Source: an uncultured Acidobacteriota bacterium (GTDB lineage: Bacteria; Acidobacteriota; Thermoanaerobaculia; Multivoradales; UBA5704). From it: a stretch of 64,000 nt of DNA. The DNA lies in NCBI GenBank assembly GCA_963770895.1, contig CAVYRF010000001.1, positions 1,376,001 to 1,440,000 on the forward strand. Reading direction: 5' to 3'. The position numbers were made by a program, and so were the translations under genes. A model generated the notes under the pieces. It searched no databases, was not told where the DNA came from, and saw only the letters and a program-made list of their open reading frames with translations. Shown piece after piece: positions 42,110-63,038 of the stretch. The first letter of the stretch is position 1. Every line of letters begins with the position of its first letter.

Positions 42110-43309
42110 TTGCTGAGGGAGACAGGCTTGGAGGGACAGGACCGCCAGGTGGGGGCAGGTGTGCCGGCGCGCCGCAAGGTGCTCATGGTGCAGGGTTCGC
42201 TGCAACCGCCGGGCGGCGGCAACGGGGTGGCCGCCTGGATCCTGCAGGCTCTCAGGGGGCGCTGCGAGCTGACGGTGGTGATGGTGGGCGCGGTCGATCT
42301 GCAAGCGGTCAATCGCCATTTCGGCACCACGCTGGCCGCGGACGACTTTACCGTGGTCACCGTGCGGTCCCTGGTCTGGCGGCTGCTCGACCGGCTGCCG
42401 CTGCGGCTCGCCCTGCTCAGGGGGCTGCTCCTGACGCGCCACGCGCGCCGGCTGGCTCCCGCTTTCGATGCAGTGGTGGGGGCGGCGGGCGAGACCGATC
42501 TGGGCGTGCCGGCCGTGCAGTACGTGCACTTCCCCTGGTCCTATCTGCCGCGCCCACCGCAGGACCTGGTCCACACGTACCACGTCGCCTGGCTGATCCG
42601 CCTCTACACCTGGGGCTGCGCCGTGCTCACCGGGTTCTCCTTCGCCCGCATGCGCCGCAATCTCACCCTGGCCAACTCGCGGTTTACCGCCCGGCATTTC
42701 GCCGCACGCCACGGCGTCGCAGCGGAGATCCTGCATCCGCCCACCATCGGCAGCTTCCCCAAGGTCGCCTGGAGCGACCGGGCCGACTCGTTCATCTGCA
42801 TCGGCCGCATCGCTCCCGAAAAGGAGCTGGAAAAGGTGATCGCCGTCCTCGCCGCGGTGCGGGAGCGCGGCCGGCCGGTCACCCTCACCCTGGCCGGCAT
42901 CGCCGACGATCCTGCCTACCACGCGCTCATCCGCGGGCTGGTGGCAGCGAACGCCTCATGGATGCGGCTGTGCGAGGACCTGCCGCGCGCCGAGCTCTGC
43001 CGGCTGGTCGCCGAGCACCGCTACGGCATCCACGGCATGCAGCGCGAGCACTTCGGCATGGCGGTCGCCGAGATGGTGCGCGCCGGCTGCATCGTCTTCG
43101 TGCCGCGCGAAGGCGGGCCGGCGGAGATCGTTGGCGAGGAGGATCTGCTGCTCTACGACGACGCGCCCGACGCCGTCGAAAAGATCCTGCGGGTCGCCGG
43201 CGACGCCGAGCTCCAGGCCGCCCTGTGCCGGCGTCTCGCCGTGCGCGGCCGCGAGCTCTCGACCGAGCATTTCGTCGCCCGCATCCGCGAGGTCTGCGGC
43301 GCCGCCTGA
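42110..43309 (+). CDS. GT4 glycosyltransferase, ALG11-like (putative alpha-1,2-mannosyltransferase)
   Basis: PPGGGNGVAAW, QYVHFP, ANSRFT, LHPP, IGRIAPEK, HGMQREHFGMAVAEMVRAG (EX7E); start uncertain (TTG 42110 or 42128). Confidence 0.8.
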   Translation: MLRETGLEGQDRQVGAGVPARRKVLMVQGSLQPPGGGNGVAAWILQALRGRCELTVVMVGAVDLQAVNRHFGTTLAADDFTVVTVRSLVWRLLDRLPLRLALLRGLLLTRHARRLAPAFDAVVGAAGETDLGVPAVQYVHFPWSYLPRPPQDLVHTYHVAWLIRLYTWGCAVLTGFSFARMRRNLTLANSRFTARHFAARHGVAAEILHPPTIGSFPKVAWSDRADSFICIGRIAPEKELEKVIAVLAAVRERGRPVTLTLAGIADDPAYHALIRGLVAANASWMRLCEDLPRAELCRLVAEHRYGIHGMQREHFGMAVAEMVRAGCIVFVPREGGPAEIVGEEDLLLYDDAPDAVEKILRVAGDAELQAALCRRLAVRGRELSTEHFVARIREVCGAA

Positions 43310-43312
43310 GCT

Positions 43313-44552
43313 TCAGGGGATGTCAGCCAGCTGGCGGATGCGGTGCTGGAAGCTTTCGACCGAAAGGTCCGGCAGGCCGGCGGCGAGGCTGCGGCGCAGG
43401 TCGGCGACCAGGCCGCATCGATCGGCCCCGTTGCCGCCATCGCTGCCGTCACCGTCGTGCTCGGCGGCGGCGAGCACGCGGCAGATCTTGTCGACGGCCT
43501 CTTGCACGGTGGCGAAGCGCAGGCGCGGGTCGCGCACGATGTCGCTCACGCCGCCGCGGTTGGGAGCGAAGACCAGGCAGCCGCCGGCGGCAAGCTCGGC
43601 GACCGCCATGCCGAACGGCTCGCGCGGGTTGGCGTGGATGGCGTAGCGATGGTGGGCGACCAGGGCGAGCAGGGCCGTACGCTCCAGATTGTGATGGACG
43701 GTGATCCAGGACGCATGGCGGGCAAACACCTCGCCGAGAGCGCGGGTGTGAGCCGGTGAGTCGTCCAGGGCGGCGATGGTCAGGCGCACGGCGTGGCCGC
43801 GGCGGCGCACCTCCTGCAGGATGGCGACGATGGTTTCGTAGCGCTTTTCCGGTGCCAGGCGGCCGATCGCCAGAAACGCGTCTGCGCGCTGTTCCCACGG
43901 CAGCCTTGGAAAGCTGCCGGCGAGCGGCGGATGGAGCACCTCCCGGCGGCGCGCCGGGGTGGCGGCGGGCGTAGACCTTGCCGGTCCAGCGCGAGTTGAC
44001 CAGGGTGACGTTGCGCCGCGTGCGGCGCATGGCAAAGCCGGTGACGGTGCCACAGGCCGCATGGTAGAGCGCGACGCGCAGCCAGCGCCCCCAGGGCCAG
44101 CGCGGGGCGGTGCGGTAGAAGCCGCGGTCGGCACTGGGGCGCGGCCACCAGGTCCAGGGAAAATGGACATATTGCAAGCCGGGACGGCGGCCCAGGTCGG
44201 CCTCGTCCTTGGCGGCGACCAGCAGGTCGTAGCCGCCGGCCAGGGCGCGCCCATGGCGGTAGAGCAGCAGCTGCTTGAGCATGATGAGAGGCGTGGGAGC
44301 GCTCGCCAGCAGGCGCCAGAGCCAGGAATCGGGCACGATCTCGCTCAGCTCGTGCGGCGCGAGCGCGGTGCCGAAGCTGCGGTTGATCGCCGCCAGGTCG
44401 GCCGGCTCGATCGACAGCAGGGCGAGATCGCAGCGCCCCGCCAGCGCCTGCAGCATCCAGGCGGCGACGGCGCTGCCGCCGCCCGGCGTGTGCAGCGACG
44501 GGTGGATGAACAGCACGCGGCGGCGGCGCGCACCTGCCGCGGCGCCGCTCAC
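43313..44552 (-). pseudogene. Second ALG11-like GT4 glycosyltransferase, split by a single +1 frameshift (real or sequencing error)
   Basis: N-half (GTG 44552: VLFIHPSLHTPGGGSAVAAW..YVHFP..VNSRWT) and C-half (EVLHPP..IGRLAPEK..HANPREPFGMAVAE) lie in different frames; span 1240 nt = 3n+1, shift at about 43942-43950. Confidence 0.75.
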
Positions 44553-46519
44553 CCGCGCGTTCCGGCGGGCGCGCCGGCCCCAGATCCGACTTCGGCCCCA
44601 GTCCCAGCCCCGGCGACGACGAGGGCGCGAAAGGTGGCGCTTCGCGCCAGCAGCTCGTCGTAAGGGCCGACCGCTTCGACGCGCCCTTCGCGCAGCAGCA
44701 CCAGGCGGTGGCAGCGCCGCACGGTGCTCAAGCGGTGCGCCACGATGACCAGGGTGCGGTCGCCGGATAGCGCCTCGATGGCGGCCGCCACCTCCTGTTC
44801 GGTGCGATTGTCGAGCGCCGCCGTGGCTTCGTCGAGCACCAGCACGCGCGGCTCGCCGTAGAGGGCGCGGGCGATGGCGACCCGCTGGCGCTCGCCGCCC
44901 GAAAGGCGCACGCCGCGCTCGCCGACGCGGGTGTCGAGACCGCCGGGCAGAGCGCTGACGAAGCGCTCGAGCTGCGCCAGGCGGATGGCGCGCCGCAGGC
45001 GGTCGGGGTCGATCTCGGCATCGGCGAGGCCGAAGGCGATGTTGCGGCGCAAGGTGTCGTCGGCGAGGTAGATGGCCTGCGGCACGTAGCCGATGCGGCG
45101 CTGCCAGGCGCGGCCGTCGTGCGCCAGGTCGACGCCGCCGGCCAGCACGCGGCCGGCGGTGGGGTGGAGCAGCGCCAGCAGGTGATCGACCAGGGTGCTC
45201 TTGCCGCTGCCGCTGGGGCCGACGATGCCGATCGCCTCGCCGGCCGGCAGGCGGAGGTTGATGTCGCAGAGCGCCGGGCGGTGCGCCGCCTCGTAGGTAA
45301 AGGTGACGTGCTCGAAGACCACCGCGTCGTGGCCGCTCGCCATCGTCGCCAGCGTTGCCATTGTCGCCATCGTCGCCAGCGGCTCCGCGGCCAGCGCGGC
45401 CGGTGGCGGCGGTGGCGACGCCGGGGCGGCAGCGGTCGGCGGCGCGGCCGGAGCGTCCGCGGCGGCCGGGGCGGCAGCGTCGCGGACGCGCGCCAGGTCG
45501 GCGGCGAGGCTGGCGGCGGCGGGGGCTTCGAAGCGCACGGTGTGCAGGTTGTAGACGACGCGGTGCGCCGAGGGCAGGATGCGGAAGCCGGCGTAGACCA
45601 GCAGCCCCAGCATCGGGATGCTGGCGCGCACGCTGCCGCCGGCGGCGGCGCCGGCGGGGGCGGTGACCGCGGCGGCGAAGACGATCGCCGCCATGCCGAG
45701 CACGAAGAGCGCCTCGACCAGCAGGCGCGGCACGGCCTCGGCGGTCACGCGCAGGGTCTGCAGGCGGGCGCGCGCGGTGCGCAGGCGCAGGAAGCGCTCG
45801 ACGAAGTGGCGCTCGCGCCCCAGAACCTTGACCTCCTTGACGCCGCCCAGGCCCTGGTTGAGCAGTCCGAGCTCGGCCAGCTCGATCTCGCGTGCCTCGC
45901 CGCCCCAGGTCTTGAACGCCTGCTGGGTAACGCGCAGGCCGCGCGCCAGGGCGAAGGTGACGACGATGCCGGCGGTGACCGCGGCGAGCGGCGCCTTCCA
46001 CAGCAGCACCGCGGCCATCGCCGCGATGTTCAGCGACTCAGAGAGCGCGACGGTGGCGGAAAGCAGCACCGAGCGGCAGGTGCGCTCCATCGATTCCTGG
46101 ATGGTATGGATCAGCTCGGCCGAATTGCGCCGCAGATGGAAGGCGTAGTCGGCGGCGAGGTAGCCGGCGAGCAGCTCGGCGGAGAGTGCCGCGATGGTGC
46201 CGTAGGCGAAGCGCGACTGCGCGTAGGCTTCGAGCGCCAGCAGGCTGTTCTTCAGCAGGTAGAAGGCGCCGACGAAGACGGCGAGGGCGGTGATCGCGGC
46301 ACGCTCGCCGGGGTGTCCGGAGAGCGCCGCGACGGAGCGTACCAGCGCCAGGTCGTGCGCCCGCGCCGGGTCGAGCAGCACGGTGACCAGCGACAGCACG
46401 GCGACGGCGCCGACCATCTCGAAGCTGGCGTTGAGCGTCGCCGTCGCCGCCAGGCCGGCCCACTGCCAGCGGGCGCGGCGCGGCAGGATGGCGAGGAGGT
46501 GATCCAGCGTCTCCTTCAT
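44549..46519 (-). CDS. ABC transporter ATP-binding/permease (PglK/WlaB-like putative lipid-linked glycan flippase)
   Basis: TM domain with YAFHLRRNSAEL, GGVKEVKV, PRLLVE, FRILPS; NBD GPSGSGKST, IGYVPQ, LSGGERQR, LDEATAALD; coupled to glycosyltransferases. Confidence 0.85.
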   Translation of the reverse strand: MKETLDHLLAILPRRARWQWAGLAATATLNASFEMVGAVAVLSLVTVLLDPARAHDLALVRSVAALSGHPGERAAITALAVFVGAFYLLKNSLLALEAYAQSRFAYGTIAALSAELLAGYLAADYAFHLRRNSAELIHTIQESMERTCRSVLLSATVALSESLNIAAMAAVLLWKAPLAAVTAGIVVTFALARGLRVTQQAFKTWGGEAREIELAELGLLNQGLGGVKEVKVLGRERHFVERFLRLRTARARLQTLRVTAEAVPRLLVEALFVLGMAAIVFAAAVTAPAGAAAGGSVRASIPMLGLLVYAGFRILPSAHRVVYNLHTVRFEAPAAASLAADLARVRDAAAPAAADAPAAPPTAAAPASPPPPPAALAAEPLATMATMATLATMASGHDAVVFEHVTFTYEAAHRPALCDINLRLPAGEAIGIVGPSGSGKSTLVDHLLALLHPTAGRVLAGGVDLAHDGRAWQRRIGYVPQAIYLADDTLRRNIAFGLADAEIDPDRLRRAIRLAQLERFVSALPGGLDTRVGERGVRLSGGERQRVAIARALYGEPRVLVLDEATAALDNRTEQEVAAAIEALSGDRTLVIVAHRLSTVRRCHRLVLLREGRVEAVGPYDELLARSATFRALVVAGAGTGAEVGSGAGAPAGTRG

Positions 46520-47664
46520 TGCGTCATCGCGTCGTGGCGCGGCGTCGCCAGCAGGTCCTCGCACGCGGCCAGCACGCGCTCGGCGGCGTCCGGCACCACG
46601 CAGCGGCGCGCCCGCGCCGCCGCGGCGTCGAGCGCGGCCGGATCGGCAAGCAGGCCGGCGAGGCGGTCCGCCCACGCTTCCGGCTGCCAGCCGGCCTCGG
46701 CCGCCCACCAGCCCGCCGACGCGGCGGTAAAGGCCGCCGCGTTGTGCGTCTGGTGATCGTGTGCCGCGCCGGCGAGCGGCACGAACAACGACGGCACCGC
46801 GGCGGCGGCGAGCTCGAACACGGTGCCGGCGCCGGCGCAGGCGATGGCAAAGTCGGCCCAGGTGTAGGCGCCCGGCATGTCGTCCAGGTAGGGGTCGACG
46901 GCGGCGGCGATGCCGGCGGCGGCGTAGGCGGCGGCGATCGGCGCCGGCGGCGAGTCGCCGCACTGGTGGCGCACGGTGAGCGCTACGCCGCGGCGGGCGG
47001 CGCGGGCGAGCAGGTCGGGGGCGCGGCGGTTGAGGAACTCCGAGCCCAGCGAGCCGCCGGTGACCAGGATCTGGGCCGGCCGGTCGCCGCGCGTGCCGGC
47101 GCCACGGCGCTCCGCTCCCAGGCGCAGGATCTCGCGCCGCACCGGCGTGCCGGTGCGCTCGACGCGCGCCGCGGGCAGGCCGGCGGCGGCCGGTTCGAAA
47201 GCGGTGAAGACACGGTCCACCAGGCGGGCCAGCAGCCGGTTGGCGAGGCCGGCGGTGGCGTTCGATTCATGGATGGCGGTGCCCAGGCCCATGCAGCGCG
47301 CCGCGAGCAGCGGTGCCGCGGTGGCGAAGCCGCCGAAGCCCACCGCCAGGCCGGCCTGGCGGTGGGCCAGGATGCGGCGGGCGCGCCCGACCCCCCGCGC
47401 CGTGCACAGCACCGCCTTCAGCTGGGATCCAGGCGAGGCGCCGAGCAGGGGCAGGCTGTCGAGGGGTTCGATGGGGTGCCCCTCGGCGGCCACCAGGCGT
47501 GCCGCGAGCCCCTGCGCCGGCACGACGAAGAACACCGCGCCCTCGCCGCGCGAGCGCCGCCACAGGTCGGCGACGACCAGCGCCGGGTAGACGTGGCCGG
47601 CGGTGCCGCCGCAGGCGATGGCCAGGCGGTGACGTGGTGCGGTGGGCTGGCGGCCGCGCGGCAT
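46516..47664 (-). CDS. MurG-like GT28 UDP-GlcNAc transferase paralogue outside the dcw cluster
   Basis: GGTAGHVYPAL, GFGGF, IHESNATAGLANR, TGTPVR, TGGSLGS, ADFAIACAGAGTVFE, DHQTHNA; no mur/fts neighbours. Confidence 0.85.
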   Translation of the reverse strand: MPRGRQPTAPRHRLAIACGGTAGHVYPALVVADLWRRSRGEGAVFFVVPAQGLAARLVAAEGHPIEPLDSLPLLGASPGSQLKAVLCTARGVGRARRILAHRQAGLAVGFGGFATAAPLLAARCMGLGTAIHESNATAGLANRLLARLVDRVFTAFEPAAAGLPAARVERTGTPVRREILRLGAERRGAGTRGDRPAQILVTGGSLGSEFLNRRAPDLLARAARRGVALTVRHQCGDSPPAPIAAAYAAAGIAAAVDPYLDDMPGAYTWADFAIACAGAGTVFELAAAAVPSLFVPLAGAAHDHQTHNAAAFTAASAGWWAAEAGWQPEAWADRLAGLLADPAALDAAAARARRCVVPDAAERVLAACEDLLATPRHDAMTQ

Positions 47665-47738
47665 CGTGCGGGGTGGCGGCGGTAGGCTCAGTGCAATGCT
47701 CCCGGCGGCGCGCGTCGCCTTCCACTACACTCGGGCGC

Positions 47739-49055
47739 ATGCTTGGCGCGCGCTGCCGCGTGGTGATCGTTGTCCTGGGCGAGCTCGGGTACAGTTCGCG
47801 TATGTTTTATCACGCCCTCGCCCTGGGCGCCGCGGGGGCGGCGGTCCACCTGGTGGGGCTGGCCGGGGCGGACCTGCCGGCGGCGGTGTGCCAGCATCCC
47901 AATATCAAAGTGCATGAGCTGGGCGCACCCCCGCGGCCGGCGCCGCGGCGTCGGGCGTGGTCGCCGGTGGCGGCCGGGGCGCGAGCGCTGCGCCTGGGCG
48001 CGGCGCTGCTGTGGTGCCTGCTGGCACGGGTCGAGCGGCCGGATTTCGTGCTGGTGCAGACGCCGCCCGCGCTGCCGGCCCTGCTGGTGGCGCTGGTCGC
48101 GGCACGCTGGCGGGCGGCGGCGCTGGTCGTCGATTGGCACAACTTCGGCGACCGCATGCTCGCTCTGCGGCTGGGCGGCGGCCATCCGCTGGTGCGGTTT
48201 CTCGGCGCCTGGGAGCGCCGGCTGGGGCGCCGCGCCGACGCGCACTTCTGCGTCTCGGCGGCGATGCGCGCCGAGCTGGCGGCGCGGTGCCGCATCGCCG
48301 CGAGGGTGCTGCGCGACCTGCCGGCGGCGCGCTTCGCGCCCACCCCCGAGCCGCGGCGCGCCGAGCTGCGGCGGCGCGTCGCCGGCGTGGCGGGCGCGGC
48401 GGATGCGACCGGCTGGGTGGGCGGCGAGGCGGCGCAGGGCCAGGCGGTGCAGGGCGAGGCGGCGACGATCGCGGTGACGGCCACCAGCTGGTCGGCGGAC
48501 GAGGACCTGGCGCTGTTGCTGGCCGCCGCGGTGCGCTGCGAGGAGGCGCTGGTGCGGCGCGGCGCGGCGCCGCTGGTCCTGCTGGTCACCGGCCGGGGCG
48601 GCGCGGTGCAGGCGGAGTTCGAGCGGCGGGCGGCGGCCCTGGAGCTGACGCGGGTGCGCATCGTGACCGCCTGGCTGGCGGCGGACGAGTATCCGGCGAT
48701 GCTCGGCGCCGCGGACCTCGGGGTGTCGCTCCACCGCTCGGCCTCGGGGTGCGACCTGCCGATGAAGATCGCCGACATGTTCGGCGCCGGACTGCCGGTG
48801 TGTGCGTTCGACTACGGGCCCTGCCTGGCGGAGCTGGTGCGCGACGGCGAAAATGGCCGGCTGTTTCGCACCGCCGACGAGCTTGCCGCGTGCCTGCTGG
48901 CGCTGGCCGGCGGCGGCGCCGACGCGGCGGCGGCGCGCGCGGCGCTGCGTCCTGGGGTGGTGGCGGCGGCGCGGCGGCGGTGGCACGAGGAGTGGGCGGC
49001 GGTGGCGGCGCCGCTCTTCGCGCCCAGCGCGGCGCGGCGGCGCGGCGGCGGATGA
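47739..49055 (+). CDS. ALG1-like beta-1,4-mannosyltransferase (GT33)
   Basis: VVLGELGYSSRMFYHA, VQTPPALP, VDWHNFG, TSWSADEDL, VTGRG, WLAADEYPAMLGAADLGVSLHRSASGCDLPMKIADMFGAGLPV, ELVRDGENG. Confidence 0.88.
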   Translation: MLGARCRVVIVVLGELGYSSRMFYHALALGAAGAAVHLVGLAGADLPAAVCQHPNIKVHELGAPPRPAPRRRAWSPVAAGARALRLGAALLWCLLARVERPDFVLVQTPPALPALLVALVAARWRAAALVVDWHNFGDRMLALRLGGGHPLVRFLGAWERRLGRRADAHFCVSAAMRAELAARCRIAARVLRDLPAARFAPTPEPRRAELRRRVAGVAGAADATGWVGGEAAQGQAVQGEAATIAVTATSWSADEDLALLLAAAVRCEEALVRRGAAPLVLLVTGRGGAVQAEFERRAAALELTRVRIVTAWLAADEYPAMLGAADLGVSLHRSASGCDLPMKIADMFGAGLPVCAFDYGPCLAELVRDGENGRLFRTADELAACLLALAGGGADAAAARAALRPGVVAAARRRWHEEWAAVAAPLFAPSAARRRGGG

Positions 49056-50308
49056 GCGAGCCCTTTCCGGCGCGGCGCAACGCCCTGCGCATCGCCGTGC
49101 TGCATCCCGAGCTGACGGTTGGCGGCGCCGAGCGGGTGATGGTCGATGCCGCGGCGGCGCTGCAGGCGGCGGGGCACGCGGTCACCCTGTTCACCGCCCG
49201 GCTCGACCGGCAGCGGGCGTTCACCGAGGCCGTTGACGGCACGCTGCGGGTGCGGGTGGTGGCCGGCGGCTTGCTGCCCGGAGCGGTGGCGCAACGGCTG
49301 CGGGTGCCGTGCGCGGTGGCGCGCAGCCTGTGGCTGGCGGCGGCGGCCGCCGCCGCGGCGCGACGCGGCGGCTGGGACGCGGTGCTCTGCGACCAGGTGG
49401 CGCAGGCGGTGCCGCTGGCGCGGCGCTGGTGCCGGGCGCCGGTGGTCTTCTACTGCCACTTTCCGGATCGGCTGCTGGCGCCTGCCGGCGGGCGATTCTA
49501 CGGCTGGTACCGCGGTCCGCTCGACCGGCTGGAGGCGGCCGGCATGGCATGCGCCGATCGCGTGCTGGTCAACAGCCGCTTCACGGCAGCGGCCTTCCGC
49601 GGTGCTTTTCCGCATGCCGCGGCGCCGGCGGTGGTATATCCGGGGGTCGAAATCGCCGCGTGCAATCCGGCGCTCGCCACTGTGGCACAGGGCGGCGGAG
49701 CGGGTGGGCCGGCGACCATTCTTTCGCTGGCGCGCTTCGCGCCCGCCAAGGGGGTCGAGCTCGCGATCGACGCCCTGGCGGAGCTGCGCACGGCGGCGCC
49801 GGCTGCATTCGCCGGCTGCCGGCTGGTCCTCGCCGGCAGCTGCGACGAGCGGGTGCGCGAGCAGCGCGAGACGCGCGCGGCGCTCGCGGCGCGCTGCACG
49901 GCGCTGGGGCTGGACGGCCGGGTGGAGCTGCGCCCTTCGGTGGACGAAGCGGAGCGCCGGGCGCTGCTCGCCGGCTGCCGCTTCCTGGTCTATACGCCTG
50001 CCGCCGAGCACTTCGGCATGGTGCCGATCGAGGCCATGGCCGCAGGGCGGCCGGTCGTCGCCATCGCCGGCGGCGGGCCGGCGGAAACCGTCGTGGACGG
50101 CGAGACGGGCTACCTCTGCCCACCGGCGCCGGCGGCCCTCGCCGCGGCTTTCGCCCGGCTCCTAGATCGGCCCGATCTCGCCGCGCGCCTGGGCGCCGCC
50201 GGCCGCCGCCATGTCGAGCACCATTTTTCGCGGGCCGCCTTCGGCGCCGCGATCGAGGCGGCGCTTCAGCAGGCGGTGCGCGGTCGCGTGCAGCGGTACA
50301 GGGCGTAG
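49052..50308 (+). CDS. ALG2-like alpha-1,3/1,6-mannosyltransferase (GT4)
   Basis: LHPELTVGGAERVMVDAA, CDQV, FYCHFPDRLL, YRGPLDRLE, ADRVLVNSRFTA, LAGSCDERV, YTPAAEHFGMVPIEAM; ATGA-coupled to the ALG1-like gene. Confidence 0.88.
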   Translation: MSEPFPARRNALRIAVLHPELTVGGAERVMVDAAAALQAAGHAVTLFTARLDRQRAFTEAVDGTLRVRVVAGGLLPGAVAQRLRVPCAVARSLWLAAAAAAAARRGGWDAVLCDQVAQAVPLARRWCRAPVVFYCHFPDRLLAPAGGRFYGWYRGPLDRLEAAGMACADRVLVNSRFTAAAFRGAFPHAAAPAVVYPGVEIAACNPALATVAQGGGAGGPATILSLARFAPAKGVELAIDALAELRTAAPAAFAGCRLVLAGSCDERVREQRETRAALAARCTALGLDGRVELRPSVDEAERRALLAGCRFLVYTPAAEHFGMVPIEAMAAGRPVVAIAGGGPAETVVDGETGYLCPPAPAALAAAFARLLDRPDLAARLGAAGRRHVEHHFSRAAFGAAIEAALQQAVRGRVQRYRA

Positions 50309-52446
50309 CGCTCACCCAGGAGCGGCGGCGCGGTCGCGGCACAGCAAATGGCGGCCAGGCCGCTGGCCAACGGTGCGGCCCAGGGCAGGCTGGTATCGAC
50401 AGCGACCAGGTCCACCCCGCGGCCGGCGACCAGGGCGACGTCGCCGGCGAGCCGAGGGGGCGGCTGGCTGGTCGCGGGTCCTCCCACCAGGGCTTCCAGG
50501 CGGCGGCGCTCGTCGATACCGCGCGGGCCTTCGCCGGCGACGGCGCCGTAGTACTCGGGGCGCACGCCGATCAGGCGCGGATGGCGGCGGAAGGTGGTGA
50601 CCCATTCGGCAAGGTCGTAGGGAGCCAGCACCAGGTCGGTAGGGCGGCTGAGGGCGACCAGAGTAGCGGCCAGCTCGTGCTCCGGCGGCACCTTCGGCGC
50701 GGGCAGGCCGAGGCGCGTGCCGTCGCGCGGCGAAAGCGTCCACGTGCCGGGAAGGCAGGCGAAGATCACGCTGAAACCGGCGGCGGCGGCGGCTCCCGGC
50801 AGCCAGCCGGGCCAGCCGGGCGATCGCGGCCACGCGGCGCGCGGTACCGGCGCTTGCGGGGCGGCGGCGCGGCGGCGCAGGGTGGCGAGGCGTTGGACAC
50901 AGAGGCCGATCAGCAGCGGGAACGGCACCGCCCAGAAGATGCGCCACAGGAAGCGCTGGACGAAGCGGCCGGCCAGCGCCGGCGTCCAGGGGTTCATCAC
51001 CGCCAGCAGCAAGGCGAGGACGTAGGCGATGGCCAAGCGGCGCCGCCGGCCCGGCGCGGCCACGAGCGGTGCCAGCAGCAGTGCGAAGAGAGCGAAGCGC
51101 GCGCGCGGGCCGGTGCCGAGCACGGCAGACAGGCCCGAGGTGGAGAGCGCGGGAAGCTGCGTCACGTCGGCCCACGAGATCGCCAGCCGTTGCGCCAGCG
51201 GCATGCGCGCCACCGTCGCCGCGGCGAAGCCGGCGACCGGCAGCGCCGCGGCGCCCGCCCAGAGCACGAGCGCCGGCCGGCGCTCGGCCGCGCTCCAGGC
51301 GGCCACCAGCAGCAGTGCCGTGGTGGGCACGGCGACGACGGCGCTGCCGGATATGCCCACCGCGGCCACCTGCACCAGGGCAAGCAGCATCCAGGTGCGC
51401 GCGCCCGGCGTGCGGCAGAAGCCCGCCGCGTAGGAAAGGGCGGCGGGCACGGCCACCACCACCGCCACCGCCTTGCCTTGGAACATGCGGACAAACGCAA
51501 AGTTGCCATACGCCTGGTGCACGTCGCCCCAGGCAAGCAGCGCCAACACCACCGCCGCGGCGCCGGCCACGGCGCCCGGCCGGCCGCCCAGGCGGCGCAG
51601 CGCCGACCAGTGGGCGAGCACGCAGAGCACCGCAAAGAGCGCCGGGAAGACCAGGTAGTAGAGCGCCTTGGGATCCACGCCGCCGAGCCGCGACAGCGTC
51701 GCGACCAGCGGTTCATAGCTCTTCAGCCGGTACCAGGTTTCAAAAGGCGGCAGACCGCGCTCGCCATAGAGCCCGTCATACGCCAGCAGCGGCTCCGCCG
51801 GGCGATCGAGCGCCGTAACCACCAGGTTGAGATAGAAGCTGTCGTCCGCATCCGGCCGGTGCGCCGCAAGGGTGACCCCGGCAGCCAGCACGCACAGGGC
51901 AAAAAGCGCAACGAGCGCCGCGCCGCCGCCTCTGTCGTGCGGCGCCGCCGACGTCAGTGTTGCCGGCAGCGCCGACACTGCCGTCGGGGCGGCGGCCGGC
52001 GCGCGAGCCCCATCTGCCGCCGCCGCGTTGTCCGGCCCGTCGCGGCGCGCCCGCACGCCGGCCGCGACGAGCACACCGACCGCGAGCACCCAATAGACCG
52101 GATATGCGCCCTTGCCGGCGGCGCCGGCGACCACCATCACCAACCCGGACGCCGCCGCGGCAACCGCCAGCGCCCGCGGCTGCAGCGCCTCCGCCTCCAA
52201 CTTCGCCACCGCCCCCTGCGGCGCCGCCGCCCCGCTACAAGCAGAGTTCGGCGCCGGCAGCCAGCGCAGTACGGCCGCGGCGGCCAGCAACGGCACCCAA
52301 GCGAGCGAAACCAGGGTGTCGAAGCTAGCGCCGAGCGCCTGCAACGTCCAACACCACGAGGTCCAGACGCCGAACAGCACCACGCTGCCATCGAGCAGCC
52401 GCACCGCCGCCGCTTCCCAGCGAAAAGCGCAGCTTTCCCCGGCCAT
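50266..52446 (-). CDS. DUF6077-like polytopic membrane protein (GT-C-fold candidate)
   Basis: Many TM helices, acidic HRPDADDSFY loop motif, FVRMFQGK, WRIFWAVP, soluble C-terminal domain. Confidence 0.65.
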   Translation of the reverse strand: MAGESCAFRWEAAAVRLLDGSVVLFGVWTSWCWTLQALGASFDTLVSLAWVPLLAAAAVLRWLPAPNSACSGAAAPQGAVAKLEAEALQPRALAVAAAASGLVMVVAGAAGKGAYPVYWVLAVGVLVAAGVRARRDGPDNAAAADGARAPAAAPTAVSALPATLTSAAPHDRGGGAALVALFALCVLAAGVTLAAHRPDADDSFYLNLVVTALDRPAEPLLAYDGLYGERGLPPFETWYRLKSYEPLVATLSRLGGVDPKALYYLVFPALFAVLCVLAHWSALRRLGGRPGAVAGAAAVVLALLAWGDVHQAYGNFAFVRMFQGKAVAVVVAVPAALSYAAGFCRTPGARTWMLLALVQVAAVGISGSAVVAVPTTALLLVAAWSAAERRPALVLWAGAAALPVAGFAAATVARMPLAQRLAISWADVTQLPALSTSGLSAVLGTGPRARFALFALLLAPLVAAPGRRRRLAIAYVLALLLAVMNPWTPALAGRFVQRFLWRIFWAVPFPLLIGLCVQRLATLRRRAAAPQAPVPRAAWPRSPGWPGWLPGAAAAAGFSVIFACLPGTWTLSPRDGTRLGLPAPKVPPEHELAATLVALSRPTDLVLAPYDLAEWVTTFRRHPRLIGVRPEYYGAVAGEGPRGIDERRRLEALVGGPATSQPPPRLAGDVALVAGRGVDLVAVDTSLPWAAPLASGLAAICCAATAPPLLGERYALYRCTRPRTAC

Positions 52447-52614
52447 CGGAGCCAGCATACCAGCGCCCCGCGCCGACCGTGGCGCGGCGCACGCACGCCG
52501 ATTCCGCCGTCTGGTCGCCCGCGACGGCCTCAGCCGTTCACCCCCTCGCCGCCTTTGACGTTCAGGATTTGGCCTGAGACCTACGGCGCATCCAGGCTTG
52601 CCAAGAAGACCCCC

Positions 52615-52683: not shown

Positions 52684-52758
52684 GCCGACGTAGCTCAGCG
52701 GTAGAGCAGCTGATTCGTAATCAGCAGGTCATCGGTTCAATCCCGATCGTCGGCTCCA
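52684..52758 (+). tRNA. tRNA-Thr (anticodon CGT); integration target
   Basis: GCCGACG acceptor stem, GCTGA-TTCGTAA-TCAGC anticodon arm, GGTTCAATCCC T-arm, encoded CCA. Confidence 0.96.
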
Positions 52759-52826
52759 GCATAAGCCCAATTCTGTCAGCGATTTAACCCCTCTCCTTCG
52801 GGTCGCGTTATCGCGCGATTCGAGAT

Positions 52827-52848
52827 CTGACTCAGCACTGACTCAGCA
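52827..52848 (+). repeat. Two tandem CTGACTCAGCA repeats (left integrase arm-type sites)
   Basis: 11-bp unit x2, about 70 bp inside attL; the same unit occurs x3 near attR. Confidence 0.75.
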
Positions 52849-53034
52849 CGCGGAGCAGTTTCGTCGGCCGCGTGGAAAGGAGGGGATCGACCCAGCGGAA
52901 CAACCAGGCAGGCACCAGCCACGACCCACAGGCAGCCGGTCGGTTCCGGCACCGCCCCCCACAGATCTAACAGCGGCCTCGGCGAGAGTTGATGGCTCCC
53001 GCCGAAGCCTGACCAACGCAAAGGAAAACGCCCT

Positions 53035-53439
53035 ATGCGAGGCTCACCGCAGTCTACAACCCCGCCGCCCCCACCCTGGAACGCCGCCGATTCGTTCCGG
53101 GAAACAACCCTCATCTGCATTGACGATCCGGTGTCGCGCGAAGCCCTCCGTCAGGTCGGCCGGATGATCTACGAAATGGCGATCGTGACGGCCGAGTTCC
53201 CCAGCGACGAGTCCACCAGCCACGCGGAGATGCGCGCCGCCCTGGCCGAGCTGCGCTTCATTGAGGGGTTCTTCCTCTCGATGCACCAGGCGGCCGAGGA
53301 ATCGTGCCTCGATCCCCAGGAAGCCCGCCTTGCCCGCTTCGCCGGCAAGATGGCAGTGCAGGTAAGCGCAATCGTTGCCGCCGTCGAGCGCGAGTTGCGA
53401 CCGATCGCCAGTTGGCCCGGCGACAAGGCAGAGAGGTGA
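53035..53439 (+). CDS. Hypothetical protein (paralogue of 53562-53927)
   Basis: AAAGGA RBS; shares RM.Y..A, E.RAA.A.LR..EG, LARFAGK.A..V.AI...E..L with the next gene. Confidence 0.7.
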   Translation: MRGSPQSTTPPPPPWNAADSFRETTLICIDDPVSREALRQVGRMIYEMAIVTAEFPSDESTSHAEMRAALAELRFIEGFFLSMHQAAEESCLDPQEARLARFAGKMAVQVSAIVAAVERELRPIASWPGDKAER

Positions 53440-53561
53440 TCGCAGTCGAGTAGTCCAGAGACACGGAGGGGCGGCGCCGTGCCGCCCCGTTTCCCTAGAA
53501 GCGGCCCCGGCAAGAGGTGTGAACTCTCACCGGAGCCTAGTCACGCAAAGGAAACCGCCCA

Positions 53562-53927
53562 ATGCGCAACCGCCACAAATCTACCACCGCATCCGCCACC
53601 TGGACCGAGGCAGCCTCGATCCGGGAAACCACCATGCGCAGTATCGACGACGCGAAGGACCGGAAGGCGATCCGCCGTCTCAGCAGAATGCTCTACCTGT
53701 ACGCGCTGGAGACGACGCGCGGGCCTTTCACGGAGTCCCCAACCCGCGACGAACTGCGCGCCGCCGCCGCCGATCTCCGGTATCTCGAAGGCTACCTATC
53801 CATGACCGGCGATGCGCACAGCGCCTCATCGCTCCCGCCGCCGGATGACGACCTGGCCCGGTTCGCCGGCAAGCTCGCCGGGAAGGTCGGCGCCATCGCG
53901 GAGTCGATCGAAGGGAGGCTGTCATGA
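53562..53927 (+). CDS. Hypothetical protein (paralogue of 53035-53439)
   Basis: AAAGGA RBS; same motifs; ATGA-coupled to the downstream HTH gene. Confidence 0.7.
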   Translation: MRNRHKSTTASATWTEAASIRETTMRSIDDAKDRKAIRRLSRMLYLYALETTRGPFTESPTRDELRAAAADLRYLEGYLSMTGDAHSASSLPPPDDDLARFAGKLAGKVGAIAESIEGRLS

Positions 53928-54223
53928 CCACTGGCCGTCACCCGGACGCCGAGCGGTCGCGCCAGGCGCTTTGCCGTCTCGTTGGGTTGGCAGGGGTAAG
54001 CCGCGTTGAGATGTCCCGCCGCCTCCAAGGCCGGGGCTTCTCATGCGACGTGCAGCGCGCTCTAACCGGCAGGACCGACCTGCGGTTGTGGCAGGTGCTG
54101 GCGATCGTAGAAGCGGTGGACATGGCGCCCGCCGAGTTCTTCCGCATGGTGTTCAAGGCGCCCAAGGAGCCCAGCCCGTTTCGGCGGCAGCTTGAAATTG
54201 TAGCGACCACGCTTCACGAGTAG
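53924..54223 (+). CDS. Putative XRE/Cro-like HTH protein
   Basis: GVSRVEMSRRL...VQRALTGRTDLRLWQVLAIVEAVDMAPAEFF pattern. Confidence 0.55.
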   Translation: MTTGRHPDAERSRQALCRLVGLAGVSRVEMSRRLQGRGFSCDVQRALTGRTDLRLWQVLAIVEAVDMAPAEFFRMVFKAPKEPSPFRRQLEIVATTLHE

Positions 54224-54365
54224 GCGAGAAGGACCACCGCAAGACACCCCCCGCGCCAACGTCACCGACGCTAAACCGTCAAACCGTCCGGGCCTGTGAA
54301 GCAGAGCACAGGCCCGGACTTCTCGCCTTAGCGCTAACGCCATACATGATCATATCTGCATAAGC

Positions 54366-55049
54366 TTGCGCCTTAAGGCAGTGAGGCATAGCCTTACGTT
54401 GGTGCCAAAGTCAGCTGTGCGGATCGCGCTAGCCGTAGGCTGCGGACTTGTGCTCGCTCTCGTCGTTGCCTTTGCGGGCTGCGTCCTATTTCTCCGACAC
54501 GAGGTAAGAAAACAGGCTGATACCACTCGCAAAGTTGCCCAGCATCAACTTGCCGAACTTCAGGAGCAGGTTCGCACACGCCAGAACGAACTAGACTCCA
54601 AGCTGACTGCGTGGCATGAGGCGCCGCTAAAATCGAGCATGGACGGTTCGACCGGCATTGGGATAGCGCACTTTGCGTCGAATGAAATCGCCGGCTGGTT
54701 GGAGCATTCTAGGCCACTGCTGAGCATCGGATGCACTGAGCACAAAACACGTTTATTTGTTGTCACCGGAATGAACGCCCAGCCTGAGCTTGCATTGTAC
54801 GAACGATATACAGTCCGACTCAGGCTTGACCAGGGTAGGCCAGAGCGCCAAGAATGGAGCCAAGGCACTGACGGCAAGCTGCTGTTTGCGCCTAACCCCA
54901 TCCTGCTAGCCAAACAGCTCGCAAAAGCTCAATTACTGCGCTTTGAGTTTACGCCATTCAACGCCACCAGTCAGGTAGCCGAATTCAACCTTGCCGGTCT
55001 AAAGGATCATCTCTCCAAGGTCGCCGCCGCTTGCGGATGGCAACTGTAG
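54366..55049 (+). CDS. Membrane-anchored protein with VasI/TagO-like domain
   Basis: TM helix and coiled coil; W..SSMDGS, LSIGCTEHKT, VRLRLD, WSQGTDGKLLF, FEFTPFN..AEFNLAGL; start uncertain. Confidence 0.55.
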   Translation: MRLKAVRHSLTLVPKSAVRIALAVGCGLVLALVVAFAGCVLFLRHEVRKQADTTRKVAQHQLAELQEQVRTRQNELDSKLTAWHEAPLKSSMDGSTGIGIAHFASNEIAGWLEHSRPLLSIGCTEHKTRLFVVTGMNAQPELALYERYTVRLRLDQGRPERQEWSQGTDGKLLFAPNPILLAKQLAKAQLLRFEFTPFNATSQVAEFNLAGLKDHLSKVAAACGWQL

Positions 55050-55065
55050 ATCGTCGAGCAATAAC

Positions 55066-55800
55066 ATGGAACCGGCCGGGCATATTCAATTGCAACCATC
55101 TCGGCTTTCAGCATTCATGATGAATCCGAGCAATTCACGTTCACGCGAGCACATTCTTACAACTCGGGCGATATACGATCTCTCGCTAGCGGCAGCGGCT
55201 AGCGGCTATCATCTCCAAACATACAGTCCGGTAGTTGACCGCGACGGCTTCGACCTCATTATAGACGACCACGACTCTATCGTTCCACTCCAGCTAAAGT
55301 CGAGAGCCGGGAGCCAGAGCAGATGGTCGGTGCATCGGAAGCTTCTTCGGCCACAGCGCCGCGACTGTGAACTGTTCGGGTTTGAGGAGAGTCCTGAGGG
55401 AGAGGGGCTCGGCGGAGGAGTTCTACTTGCGCACATAGAGCCGCATGACAGCGCACTCGACGTAACGTATTACTACACCGATGTCCATATCCTAACTGCC
55501 CTATGGCAACGAGTTGTCGATCGCAACCGCTCAGAAGATGTGGCACTCCGCAGATTGCAAATTGATCTCTCAGCCGACGTTGCCGGCTTTGTGGCTCTAC
55601 CTAAGGCTGCATTCGTCCGGGCCAATTCTCCTGACGCAGTGCTAGCCTTGGCTGGTTTGCATAGCCGCTACAACATGGCATGGCGTCTCAATATTAGGCG
55701 CCTTGCTGGGTCTGCCAACCGAGGCGAACCATTAGATTTACCGGAAGGTCGCCTGCGCTCCACAATCGCTGCCGAGTTGGCTGCGATGCAACGCCCGTGA
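55066..55800 (+). CDS. Hypothetical protein with PD-(D/E)xK-like nuclease motif
   Basis: SREH..., VDRDGFDLIID...VPLQLKS (D...QxK variant); island cargo. Confidence 0.5.
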   Translation: MEPAGHIQLQPSRLSAFMMNPSNSRSREHILTTRAIYDLSLAAAASGYHLQTYSPVVDRDGFDLIIDDHDSIVPLQLKSRAGSQSRWSVHRKLLRPQRRDCELFGFEESPEGEGLGGGVLLAHIEPHDSALDVTYYYTDVHILTALWQRVVDRNRSEDVALRRLQIDLSADVAGFVALPKAAFVRANSPDAVLALAGLHSRYNMAWRLNIRRLAGSANRGEPLDLPEGRLRSTIAAELAAMQRP

Positions 55801-55965
55801 CTTTCCGGTGCTGGTGCGGGGCGATACTTTGGGGTAACGCCGAATTGCCGGCTATTGGGCTCGCGTAGTGGGCGCCGGCCCATAGACCCAGAGCGATACC
55901 ACCATAGGCTTGTGCCGGTGGCGATGCCGCGCATAGCCTCAAGGGAGGTTCCTGGAGACTGCACT

Positions 55966-56475
55966 ATGGATCGTAAGGCGCTCCCTCGATCTCTCGCCCT
56001 CTTTGTCGCCGTCGCCTCTCTTGCCCTACCGTGCGCAGCACAAAAGCCCGCACAGCCCGCGCCGCAGGCAGCCCAACAGTTAGGGTTTGGTAAGTGGCAG
56101 GTTCTCAGTGAGGGGGCCGTTTTCATACAGCGCGGTACGCTTGCCTTGGTCCTAACGGTGGGCCAGATTAGGCAGGCTCCGGTCGGCACCGCCTACATTG
56201 TAGACCGACTGTCCGATGTGCCTAACAGCCGCCAGCGGGATTTGTCGGGGTGTCCCCAGCGTCTCCGCGTTGACTCGAATCCGGCGCTAGCGATTGGGAT
56301 CGGCGCCGGGTCCGTCACAGACGGACGCGTGCTACTGCGTGAAATGCTCGCCGGGAACTCGCTGACTGCGGAGTATTGCATTTGGCCCAACCATCGGCCG
56401 GCCCATTCCACTTTCGAGCTAAAAGGCTTCGCGCAAGCGTGGCACGCAGCCGGTGGGCGTGAACCGAAATCGTAG
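55966..56475 (+). CDS. Hypothetical secreted protein
   Basis: GGAG RBS; signal peptide MDRKALPRSLALFVAVASLALPCAA. Confidence 0.55.
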   Translation: MDRKALPRSLALFVAVASLALPCAAQKPAQPAPQAAQQLGFGKWQVLSEGAVFIQRGTLALVLTVGQIRQAPVGTAYIVDRLSDVPNSRQRDLSGCPQRLRVDSNPALAIGIGAGSVTDGRVLLREMLAGNSLTAEYCIWPNHRPAHSTFELKGFAQAWHAAGGREPKS

Positions 56476-56549
56476 GTCCGCCTCAATGGCAAGACTACCC
56501 AATAGATATCTGTTGTTTGTAGATTTGGGCGCCGAAATGGGAGACAGGA

Positions 56550-56924
56550 ATGAAAAAGGCCACTCTCACGCCTCTCACGCTGCTGATTTTCCAACTCAAC
56601 CACCTTCTCGACACGGGTCGCTACGACAGGATCACATTCCAGGAGGTGACTTCTCGAATCGAAGATGGATCCATCCTCCATTTCCTCAAGGAACGCGCAG
56701 GCGAAGATGTAGACCTCAGCGCGCATCTTGAGGGCGGTCTTATGCATGGCAAGTTCGAGCACTTCTACGTGCCGTATTTGCAATCGTTCCTCAACGCCGA
56801 GGATTTCCAGCGCAAGTGGCTTGTACAAAACCGGGGGCTGTGCCTGCTTATCGCGATGACCAACGAGATTGTCCAGCAAGGCAGTGGTTGGTCCTCCTCG
56901 ACCGACGTTGCTGGTGTGGAATAG
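56550..56924 (+). CDS. Hypothetical protein
   Basis: GGAGACAGGA RBS, 124 aa, co-oriented with other cargo genes. Confidence 0.55.
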   Translation: MKKATLTPLTLLIFQLNHLLDTGRYDRITFQEVTSRIEDGSILHFLKERAGEDVDLSAHLEGGLMHGKFEHFYVPYLQSFLNAEDFQRKWLVQNRGLCLLIAMTNEIVQQGSGWSSSTDVAGVE

Positions 56925-56967
56925 CGCGCCGTGCGCAGCAGGTCAGAGGTCAACGCCACGATCAGAT

Positions 56968-57045
56968 GCGCTCAGCCGCGGTCACACCAAGGCCGCCGCC
57001 GCCGGCCTGGCTGGCGTGAGTGAAGTGGTGCGCGTATAAGCGAGC
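56968..57045 (+). repeat. Left arm of a perfect 78-bp inverted repeat
   Basis: Exact reverse complement of 58435-58512. Confidence 0.95.
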
Positions 57046-61829: not shown

Positions 61830-63038
61830 TCAGGTCCTCATGGGCAAGACTTTGGCGGACGGCTCGGGCTCGCGGTCGAGCGCCGCGCGCAACCACCCGC
61901 TCACGCGGTCAGCCGCCGCGACCAGGGAATGGCTCCGGTGCGTGTAGCGGTCATGCGCATCCGTTCCAGGCGCATGGCCCATCAAGAGCTTGCGGACTTC
62001 CCGGTCCACGCCCAGCTCCGCCGCCGCAGTTCCGAAGGCATGGCGCGTGGCGTCGTATAGTCGGATACCAGCGGGAACCTCGGCGCGGGCCGTGACGCGC
62101 TCCCATAGGAGGCGCAGACTCGGGATGTGCTTGCCACTGGCGGGCGGACGAACAAAAACCCAAGGGCCAGTCCTGGCGAGCCCTGCGAGCACTTCCACCG
62201 CCGCCGCTCCCAGGACCACCACCCGTGGGCCGGTCTTCGCTGCCTTGAGCCCCCAGGTGCGGTCCGCCACGTTGATGTGCTCCCATCGGGCGGCGATCAC
62301 CTCAGCCGGCCGCGCACCGGTCAGCAGGCAAAACTTGAACGCAGCGACCGCTGCCGCGTCGTCTTCCTCTTCGAGCGCCGCGCCGATGCGCCCAAGCTCT
62401 TCGCGGCTGAGACCGCGCCCCCGTGGGGGCTCCGCAAAGCGATCGTGACGGGCGGCGGGGTTGCTGCGGTCCTGCGGGAACCACTGCCACCGCTGCGCCA
62501 GCGACCAGGCTTTCGAGGCAAGCGAGAGCAGCCGGTTCGCCATGAAGGGGTGAGCCGCGCCCACGTCCCGGTGCAGCTTGTCGAGATCCTGCCAGGTCAC
62601 GTCCGCAACCGGCCGCGCCTTGAGCGCCGGCACCAGGTAGAGGCGGAAGAGCATCTCAGCGTTTCGGCGTGAGCTTGCAGACTTGCTAGCGTAGTGCTCT
62701 GCGAGGACGCGATTGGCAAGGTCGGCAACGGTCGGCGCCGTGTCCGTCATGTGGCGCCGCGCCCGCCGGTCCTTGAGAGGGTCTTCCCCTCGGCCGACCG
62801 CCGCCTTGAGCTGGCGGGCCTCTTCGCGCGCGGTGTCTACGGTCCACTCGCCAAAGCGCCCGATCGTGTAGCGGCGCTCCCGCCCGCCGGCCCCTCGGTA
62901 GTTCAGCACGAAGGACTTCACGCCACCGCGAGAGACCGCGATCCCGAAGCCCTTCACGTCGGTATCCCAGGCGACCTCGGCGCGGTCGGGGCCGGGCTTC
63001 AAGCTGTCGGCCAGTTTTTTGGTGAGCTTCCGAGCCAT
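61830..63038 (-). CDS. int: Tyrosine integrase with N-terminal arm-binding domain (P4-like)
   Basis: WDTDVKGFGIAV..GVKSFVLNYR..RRYTIGRFGEWTVDTARE; LTGARPAE, KTG, YDATRH, LMGH, RYTH. Confidence 0.93.
   Translation of the reverse strand: MARKLTKKLADSLKPGPDRAEVAWDTDVKGFGIAVSRGGVKSFVLNYRGAGGRERRYTIGRFGEWTVDTAREEARQLKAAVGRGEDPLKDRRARRHMTDTAPTVADLANRVLAEHYASKSASSRRNAEMLFRLYLVPALKARPVADVTWQDLDKLHRDVGAAHPFMANRLLSLASKAWSLAQRWQWFPQDRSNPAARHDRFAEPPRGRGLSREELGRIGAALEEEDDAAAVAAFKFCLLTGARPAEVIAARWEHINVADRTWGLKAAKTGPRVVVLGAAAVEVLAGLARTGPWVFVRPPASGKHIPSLRLLWERVTARAEVPAGIRLYDATRHAFGTAAAELGVDREVRKLLMGHAPGTDAHDRYTHRSHSLVAAADRVSGWLRAALDREPEPSAKVLPMRT

Follow-up and report, generated by a model that had tools for sequence, protein, structure and literature searches.

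The 64,000-nucleotide stretch of DNA analyzed here (the window; positions 1,376,001 to 1,440,000 of contig CAVYRF010000001.1 in assembly GCA_963770895.1), from an uncultured Acidobacteriota bacterium, contains a cluster of seven contiguous coding regions, here called B to H, which fill positions 42128-52458 and whose most likely function, judging from sequence relationships, is the assembly and export of a Man-GlcNAc2-type glycan (Man, mannose; GlcNAc, N-acetylglucosamine) on polyprenyl diphosphate (PP). The coding regions were delineated by a frame plot of third-position GC content, translations, Pfam, and NCBIfam; because the region is 72-78% GC and holds many spurious open reading frames, the frames themselves were assigned from third-position GC together with the translations. 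The features are as follows (GT, glycosyltransferase; TMD-NBD, transmembrane domain and nucleotide-binding domain):

42128/42185..43309, + strand: B, GT4 glycosyltransferase; start 42128 is the database gene call, 42185 the first ATG
43313..44552, - strand: C, frameshifted GT4 paralog of B, with its halves in different frames
44549..46519, - strand: D, fused TMD-NBD ABC exporter of the MsbA/PglK type, putative flippase (ABC_tran, ABC_membrane)
46516..47664, - strand: E, MurG paralog (GT28 domains), putative GlcNAc-PP-lipid beta-1,4-GlcNAc transferase
47665..47738, no strand: divergent intergenic region of 74 bp between E-D-C and F-G, coordinates from translations
47739..49055, + strand: F, ALG1-family (GT33-like) beta-1,4-mannosyltransferase homolog, as judged from homologs and tree
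49052..50308, + strand: G, ALG2-family GT4 (EHFGMVPIE, G-loop TVGGAER)
50266..52446/52458, - strand: H, DUF6077 polytopic membrane protein with a predicted GT-C fold (start 52446 or 52458; PF19554, AlphaFold2 model)

An earlier note on this DNA, made from the sequence alone, had described seven contiguous genes mirroring the eukaryotic pathway for lipid-linked oligosaccharides. Seven coding regions do lie at these coordinates, but they form two divergent operons and two separate convergent units. E-D-C and F-G are the divergent operons, with 4-nt start/stop overlaps (G overlaps F by 4 nt) and 74 bp between them, and B and H are the convergent units outside both. The promoter scan returned no sigma-70-like sites, the 74-bp divergent intergenic region included. 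Assignment to Pfam and NCBIfam families, a check that the note had proposed, placed E in GT28 and H in DUF6077, but gave the GT4 proteins generic family names only.

Membership of F in a bacterial family of ALG1 homologs is supported by several sequence comparisons. Among the candidates scored, 175 were F homologs, and the 120 of these that were listed all have E <= 2.3e-82; every listed homolog that carries a JGI name is called a beta-1,4-mannosyltransferase. The nearest protein-atlas clusters of F include eukaryotic ones named chitobiosyldiphosphodolichol beta-mannosyltransferase, at 0.98-0.99. F carries all 44 invariant columns of a 31-sequence alignment (A1), by construction, and at the N-terminal family signature LG..G.S.RM.YHA it reads VLGELGYSSRMFYHA against the consensus VLGDLGRSPRMQYHA, the family consensus starting with VVVLGDLGRSPRMQYHALALA. 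A sequence search of the PDB with F gave nothing meaningful (best E 0.39). The F tree has 69 rows, with 13 rows dropped since the translated match contained a stop codon; F of the window lies inside clades of the type linked to other glycan-assembly genes (support 96, 8 rows, and 100, 32 rows), and loci of the "lone" type form a clade of their own (support 100). Two natural fusions, P0008 (761 aa) and P0052 (763 aa), join a PF00953 domain of the WecA/ALG7-type GlcNAc-1-phosphate transferase (GPT) to an ALG1-like domain, suggesting that an N-acetylhexosamine (HexNAc)-PP-lipid is the acceptor. The ALG1-like reading of F in the earlier note is therefore upheld by the JGI names, the eukaryotic ALG1-named atlas neighbors, and bacterial homologs reported as active in the available text of a preprint (bioRxiv 10.1101/2025.10.15.682550).

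According to that text, bacterial ALG1 homologs from Gammaproteobacteria, Polyangia, and Binatia, as well as bacterial ALG2 homologs from Gammaproteobacteria, Polyangia, and one deltaproteobacterium, are active, the former as beta-1,4-mannosyltransferases on GlcNAc2-PP-phytanyl and the latter as dual alpha-1,3/1,6-mannosyltransferases on ManGlcNAc2-PP-phytanyl, and several complement yeast mutants. One Polyangia F homolog in the present set (P0059) has an accession in the numeric block of the preprint's PoALG2, but the two are non-adjacent. As a separate observation, the ALG1-like genes of three loci titled as Bifidobacterium or Bifidobacteriaceae (L071, L076, and L082), from metagenome-assembled genomes (MAGs), nest among Acidobacteriota sequences, and these bins are probably mislabeled or contaminated.

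E is a single 382-aa chain with both GT28 domains (PF03033, E 2.9e-19; PF04101, E 2.3e-27), no other Pfam family at E <= 0.01, and no split ALG13/ALG14 architecture. On the murG equivalog model TIGR01133 it scores 226.7 bits, below the cut-off of 250.25, and the housekeeping murG of the same genome, at 1105909 on contig C2 near mraY (1109783), scores 255.7 bits and shares 35.5% identity with E. Two MurG-family genes were likewise present in all five genomes tested that carry an F-linked copy, the housekeeping copy lying above the cut-off at 272-308 bits and the linked copy below it at 210-250 bits. The E tree comprises 37 rows (30 F-linked copies, six housekeeping copies, and E of the window), and a branch with SH-aLRT support of 100 splits 28 of the 30 linked copies plus window E from the six housekeeping MurGs; the two remaining copies, both myxobacterial, fall with the housekeeping MurGs. 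These comparisons support E as part of a separate clade of MurG paralogs that travels with F across several phyla, and the note's description of it as a MurG-like transferase stands, its putative function being analogous to that of ALG13/14.

The third core protein, G, contains the EX7E motif EHFGMVPIE, valine included, and is 43-55% identical to the ALG2-type genes of F loci elsewhere; a PDB sequence search with G found generic GT4 structures only. The two ALG2 motifs defined in the available preprint text are GIGGAER and EHFGIVPLE, so that G conserves the EX7E motif with its valine but, unlike the enzymes described there, has a threonine at the first glycine of the G-loop. Assignment of G to ALG2 is thus supported by its motifs and by its linkage to an ALG1-type gene; that part of the note's reading holds, with the G-loop substitution standing against it.

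Evidence that these genes form a conserved module comes from other bacteria. A scan with the F alignment, using one genome per species, found 183 encoding stretches, and the best 80 loci, all from MAGs, were retained and examined with 10-kb flanks. Partners were scored by tblastn with the window proteins plus oligosaccharyltransferase (OST) and GPT queries taken from the loci, at E <= 1e-8 and coverage >= 0.5 (coverage 0.25 for OST; at least 200 aa for GPT). At least one module partner was found at 40 of the 80 F loci. The individual partners, with bracketed counts for the 20 loci that bear a partner and span at least 18 kb, were E at 31 of 80 (17/20), OST at 29 of 80 (16/20), G at 27 of 80 (16/20), D at 26 of 80 (17/20), B at 16 of 80 (11/20), and GPT at 13 of 80 (6/20). 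A B-type GT4 is found together with E, F, G, and D in Binatia, Myxococcota, Methylomirabilota/Rokubacteria, Verrucomicrobiia, and some Acidobacteriota. The synteny survey that the note had called for therefore bears out the linkage of these five genes across phyla, but not that of H, which was found at none of the 80 loci.

The large conserved neighbors in these loci belong to the STT3 family, with PF02516 plus PF21436 or PF22627. The motif WWD[YHF]G occurs in 18 of 30 OST reading frames, four more full-length OSTs carry xWDYG and one DWIYG, and five motif-less frames are cut by contig ends. One OST type is AglB-like (E 2.3e-46 to Archaeoglobus fulgidus AglB) and is found in modules of Rokubacteria/Methylomirabilota/Vicinamibacteria; the other is weakly PglB-like. 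Control searches found STT3 in none of 10 bacterial genomes. Where an OST is combined with the MurG-paralog, ALG1, ALG2, and ABC exporter genes, the locus is, on this sequence evidence, a candidate for a complete N-glycosylation locus of bacteria, one whose core enzymes are of eukaryotic type.

The OST-bearing loci are L012, L028 (OST at 3074-5869), L039, L045 (OST at 11088-13463), and 25 others, hosted by MAGs of Binatia, Myxococcota, Rokubacteria/Methylomirabilota, Vicinamibacteria, and Verrucomicrobiia. In four loci (L012, L014, L015, and L016; e.g., L016:8932-9933), the MurG paralog is also separated from the ALG1-like gene by a GT2 gene (about 330 aa), whose product may synthesize a polyprenyl-phosphate sugar with which the glycan is elaborated in the periplasm.

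The remaining cytoplasmic and export functions of the window cluster are less specific. B, an accessory but conserved component of the module, matches Glycos_transf_1 (E 1.5e-10) and Glyco_trans_1_4 in Pfam, C is 42-47% identical to B, and their EX7E motifs read EHFGMAVAE and EPFGMAVAE, respectively; B is 28% identical to G (E 2e-10), its protein-atlas neighbors are generic bacterial and archaeal GT4s, and a PDB sequence search with it found no match. The ALG11_N domain (PF15924) was absent from B and C at E <= 0.01, from their N-terminal halves at E <= 10, and from the whole genome at E <= 1, and it occurs in none of the 120 listed B homologs, whose JGI name is generic. An "ALG11-like" label for B and C is consequently not supported, and the two ALG11-like enzymes of the earlier note have to be given up, given that this domain is the sole testable defining feature and that C is a pseudogene. 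D is a generic fused ABC exporter by its sequence (ABC_tran, E 5.9e-30; ABC_membrane, 26.9 bits), scoring 265.1 bits on the MsbA model (cut-off 602) and 236.6 bits on the PglK model NF050066 (cut-off 1000). The PglK-like exporter of the note is thus retained as a fused, module-linked ABC exporter, but it lies far under the PglK (and MsbA) cut-off.

The host genome is of soil type, 95% complete, and Gram-negative (LpxC present). As the note had stated, genes for the WecA/ALG7-type transferase and for GDP-mannose synthesis lie outside the window: the PF00953 genes of the genome and a ManC-like gene are on contig C2. The second PF00953 gene (C2:2992138-2993046) is 39.5% identical to the GPT domain of a natural GPT-ALG1 fusion, and four Wzy_C-family genes are located on the same contig. 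The sole ManC-like (GDP-mannose pyrophosphorylase) match, at G000:C2:2800765-2801871, has one in-frame TGA and lacks the phosphomannose isomerase domain. The segment G000:C2:2.99-3.05 Mb groups the second PF00953 gene with several GT4s weakly like G and two Wzy_C genes; this surface-polysaccharide region could supply the initiating transferase or a ligase.

H is the sole copy of its family in the genome, with PF19554 (DUF6077) as its only Pfam match (79.3 bits, cut-off 27). Just 20 homologs were found in a collection of 5.8 billion proteins, the closest being P0122 (92% identity) and P0123 (53%). In the alignment of the family, the residues D199, D201, and D202 within HRPDADDxFYLN are each either invariant or shared by at least 90% of rows, R320, Q323, G324, and K325 are invariant, and the acidic DxDD directly follows the first core helix, in the first extracytoplasmic loop. 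The AlphaFold2 model (pLDDT 84.2, pTM 0.88) aligned by VIA-align to yeast STT3 over 460 residues with Z 16.9 and a root-mean-square deviation of 5.1, and to other GT-C enzymes with Z-scores of 16.2 (AftD), 16.1 (AglB), 13.7 (DPY19), 13.5 (PMT), 13.4 (PglB), and 12.5 (ArnT). It has four additional N-terminal helices and a C-terminal periplasmic domain, residues 586-720 of which bear a weak likeness to the C-terminal globular domain of AglB (Z 5.8). H thus models as a GT-C fold enzyme, in line with the GT-C-like polytopic protein of the note, and since the top Z-scores (STT3, AftD, and AglB) are tied, "GT-C fold" alone is the safe designation.

DUF6077 proteins exceed the family cut-off in 11 of 401 genomes of the phylum. 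Their usual neighbors are Wzt, an ABC-2 permease (Wzm), and a double-GT2 protein, each at 15 of 90 loci, suggesting that DUF6077 proteins act downstream of an ABC-exported, lipid-linked glycan. The 11 same-phylum loci also show generic ABC and GT4 matches to D and G. The literature searches returned no paper on DUF6077.

Taken together, these results are best accounted for if the cluster represents a horizontally acquired, accessory copy of a widespread bacterial module that would build a eukaryote-type core glycan on polyprenyl-PP, with H or an unlinked ligase then using the product; a probability of roughly 0.55 is given to this reading. The pathway would begin with GlcNAc-PP-lipid made by the WecA-type transferase at C2:2992138-2993046, to which the MurG paralog E, as its family and conserved linkage suggest, would add the second GlcNAc. 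F would then add a beta-1,4-linked mannose and G further mannose, activities that have been shown for homologs in the respective families, and B may add one or more unspecified sugars, C being dead. The ABC exporter D is predicted to flip the product. For the last step, an STT3/AglB-type OST would glycosylate proteins in most other module-bearing genomes, and here the fold and position of H make it the best candidate user of the flipped glycan, either in transfer or in extension. The eukaryote-like pathway of the earlier note is accordingly kept in part: a MurG-like, ALG1-like, and ALG2-like core with a flippase is retained, but its ALG11 step is unsupported.

Several observations weigh against this reading. 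No STT3 was detected in the window genome, either by hidden Markov model (PF02516) or by tblastn with four OST queries (>60 bits), so that the transfer of the glycan to protein suggested in the note finds no support in this genome. F was absent from all nine same-genus genomes and from all 15 other genomes of the family, and was found in two of 16 genomes from other families of the order, a patchy distribution; one of these two (G026) has GPT-D-F-B with an AglB-like OST, E and G being absent within 10 kb. Half of the F loci (40 of 80), mostly Vicinamibacterales/Acidobacteriota (L031-L085), are partner-less, with xanthine-dehydrogenase-type, NDH-2, and amidohydrolase genes as neighbors, and all five genomes tested that carry such a locus lack STT3 and a close G ortholog. 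An ALG1-like enzyme alone, therefore, does not imply the pathway.

The window proteins themselves add to these objections. The first glycine of the G-loop (GxGGAER in the family), replaced by threonine in TVGGAER of window G, is kept in 26 of 27 module G homologs, the other being unreadable, and the substitutions G20A in GaALG2 and G25A in HsALG2 abolish activity according to the available text of bioRxiv 10.1101/2025.10.15.682550. The frame of C changes between about 43973 and 43942, where the sequence is GC-rich. A contig from run X2, perhaps not independent of the source, covers 43813-43987 with 0 differences, suggesting that the frameshift is not peculiar to this assembly, and an 11.8-kb contig from run X3, about 91% identical, has an extra GG behind 43942 that restores the frame, which points to a recent 2-bp loss; C is a pseudogene with a 2-bp deletion. 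Finally, H is associated with the module in this lineage alone: H homologs were found at none of the 80 F loci (E <= 1e-3), all 11 same-phylum DUF6077 loci lack E, F, B, OST, and GPT, and no module partner passed the thresholds used at any of 80 metagenome DUF6077 loci. H has neither a PF02516 match nor a WWDxG motif (no WW or W.D.G string). A relationship of H to STT3 at the sequence level was considered and rejected, hhalign giving probabilities of 2.9% and 3.2% against the two alignments of module OSTs.

A rival explanation is that the cluster is the decaying remnant of an N-glycosylation locus that arrived with an OST, has since lost it, and is partly inactive, its product being orphaned or taken over by unrelated ligases such as the four Wzy_C proteins on C2, and with H unrelated to it. 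The broken C gene (intact in the ~91%-identical relative), the threonine at an essential glycine of G, the position of F on a long branch (0.77) with atypical composition, the H linkage seen nowhere else, and the Wzy_C genes elsewhere in the genome all favor this explanation, as does the absence of OST and GPT from the cluster when the nearest relatives of F (L010, L013, L026, L030, and L006) all keep an OST. However, the reading frame is unbroken in six of the seven genes, third-position GC is strong there, and the start/stop overlaps are preserved. The differences of B from the ~91%-identical relative fall mostly at third codon positions (21 of 32 listed, by hand count), indicating purifying selection on B, and other metagenomes contain proteins closely related to B, F, and H, at 84-96% identity. 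Moreover, with half of the F loci partner-less within their 10-kb flanks and all five such genomes without STT3, use of the family without an OST appears to be normal. Decay is considered an unlikely explanation.

Also improbable, to a similar degree, is a more specific proposal, in which the cluster would be an OST-less derivative of a widespread, undescribed bacterial N-glycosylation locus and the DUF6077 GT-C protein would have taken over the transfer step, thereby defining a new class of en-bloc glycan transferase. Under that proposal, the ancestral locus would comprise a WecA/ALG7-type initiator, the MurG paralog, ALG1, ALG2, a GT4, an ABC flippase, and an STT3/AglB-type OST, together yielding a Man-GlcNAc2 core.

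Least probable by some distance is an ordinary surface-polysaccharide or lipopolysaccharide-type cluster whose GT4 and GT28 enzymes act on other acceptors and sugars, with no chitobiose-mannose core: the generic GT4, GT28, and ABC names from Pfam and NCBIfam, the generically named B homologs, the Wzm/Wzt exporters that typically accompany DUF6077, and the "lone" Acidobacteriota F homologs, whose neighbors are metabolic genes and whose genomes lack STT3 and an ALG2-like gene, would fit it, but F groups with the module-type clade and not the lone type, the bacterial ALG1 and ALG2 homolog families have measured activities and complement yeast mutants in the preprint's available text, E, F, and G are linked in at least five phyla, also with WWDYG-bearing OSTs, and the GPT-ALG1 fusions point to a HexNAc-PP-lipid acceptor.

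Under the preferred reading of an acquired core-glycan module, the cluster can be compared to several known systems. It shares with the eukaryotic lipid-linked oligosaccharide pathway the ALG1 and ALG2 sequence families of F and G, a GT28-type GlcNAc transferase that precedes them, and, as predicted here, assembly on the cytoplasmic face followed by flipping and transfer; the loci of other genomes also share with it an initiator of the PF00953 type and an OST of the STT3 family. In contrast to that pathway, E is a single-chain MurG paralog rather than a split ALG13/14 pair, there is no ALG11_N-bearing enzyme in the window and no STT3 in its genome, the flippase would be an ABC exporter and not RFT1-like, the carrier is presumably undecaprenyl rather than dolichyl, and the cluster showed no lumenal genes of the ALG3/9/12 type. 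Archaeal N-glycosylation resembles it in the chitobiose core made through a GlcNAc transferase related to MurG and ALG13-14 (Agl24; eLife 2022, PMC8993221, in the text available), and archaeal AglB resembles the OST of the Rokubacteria/Methylomirabilota/Vicinamibacteria module type, whereas archaea are described as having no ALG1 homologs in the available text of bioRxiv 10.1101/2025.10.15.682550, and the window has no AglB.

Among bacterial systems, the Campylobacter jejuni pgl pathway (PglC/A/J/H/I, PglK, and PglB) likewise has a polyprenyl-PP oligosaccharide built by GT4s, flipping by a fused ABC exporter, and use of the product by a GT-C enzyme. Its sugars and enzymes differ, however, the bacillosamine pathway is absent here, D is far from the PglK cut-off, and H is not PglB. 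The DUF6077 polysaccharide loci share with the cluster a genuine PF19554 member and a nearby ABC exporter but, unlike it, employ Wzm/Wzt with large GT2 enzymes (15 of 90 loci) and lack homologs of E, F, and B. F groups with the same source taxa as the bacterial ALG1 and ALG2 enzymes of the preprint (Polyangia, Binatia, Methylomirabilota, and "Delta"- and Gammaproteobacteria MAGs). The preprint treats its enzymes singly, and the strings "operon" and "neighbo" occur 0 times in its available text. That work has made the earlier note's statement that no bacterial system of this kind is characterized outdated at the single-enzyme level, and novelty at the enzyme level is pre-empted by it. No paper on a native bacterial ALG-OST locus was found in the literature; as far as those searches show, two features are apparently new, namely that the module shares a conserved locus with an OST in other bacteria and that a DUF6077 protein takes the place of the OST in this cluster.

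With regard to genomic setting, the cluster is flanked on the left by uvrB, uvrC, a MacB-type permease gene, and a topoisomerase IB gene, and on the right by tRNA-Thr and a 10.5-kb island. Its GC content is 75.1% against 70.7% for the genome, within the top 8% of 10-kb windows, and hence no clear outlier. Compared to a same-genus genome (G003), the topoisomerase IB gene alone aligns (75% identity), the flanks being non-syntenic. The last 50 bases (52709-52758) of the tRNA-Thr(CGT) gene at 52684-52758 recur perfectly at 63213-63262, and the ~10.5-kb island between these repeats, at about 60% GC, encodes a tyrosine integrase (61830..63038, - strand), a DUF3631 protein, a VasI-domain protein, and a nucleoside 2-deoxyribosyltransferase-like protein. 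The island beside the glycan cluster (52684-63262) is an integrative element inserted at tRNA-Thr.

As its sequence relationships suggest, soluble bacterial enzymes that build Man3GlcNAc2 are naturally available from the cluster for glycoengineering, and the presence of a DUF6077 GT-C protein in the place of the OST offers a handle on the function of an uncharacterized GT-C family. The finding also bears on how the N-glycosylation pathway of eukaryotes originated, an old open question, ALG1 having long been regarded as a eukaryotic innovation of unknown origin (Lombard 2016, in the text available). Because ALG1 and ALG2 genes share a conserved locus with a MurG paralog, an ABC exporter, and often a GlcNAc-1-phosphate transferase and an OST, some bacteria may run a whole eukaryote-like pathway. 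If this is true, the cytosolic half of the eukaryotic pathway would, in large part, have a candidate source in the bacterial ALG-OST locus.

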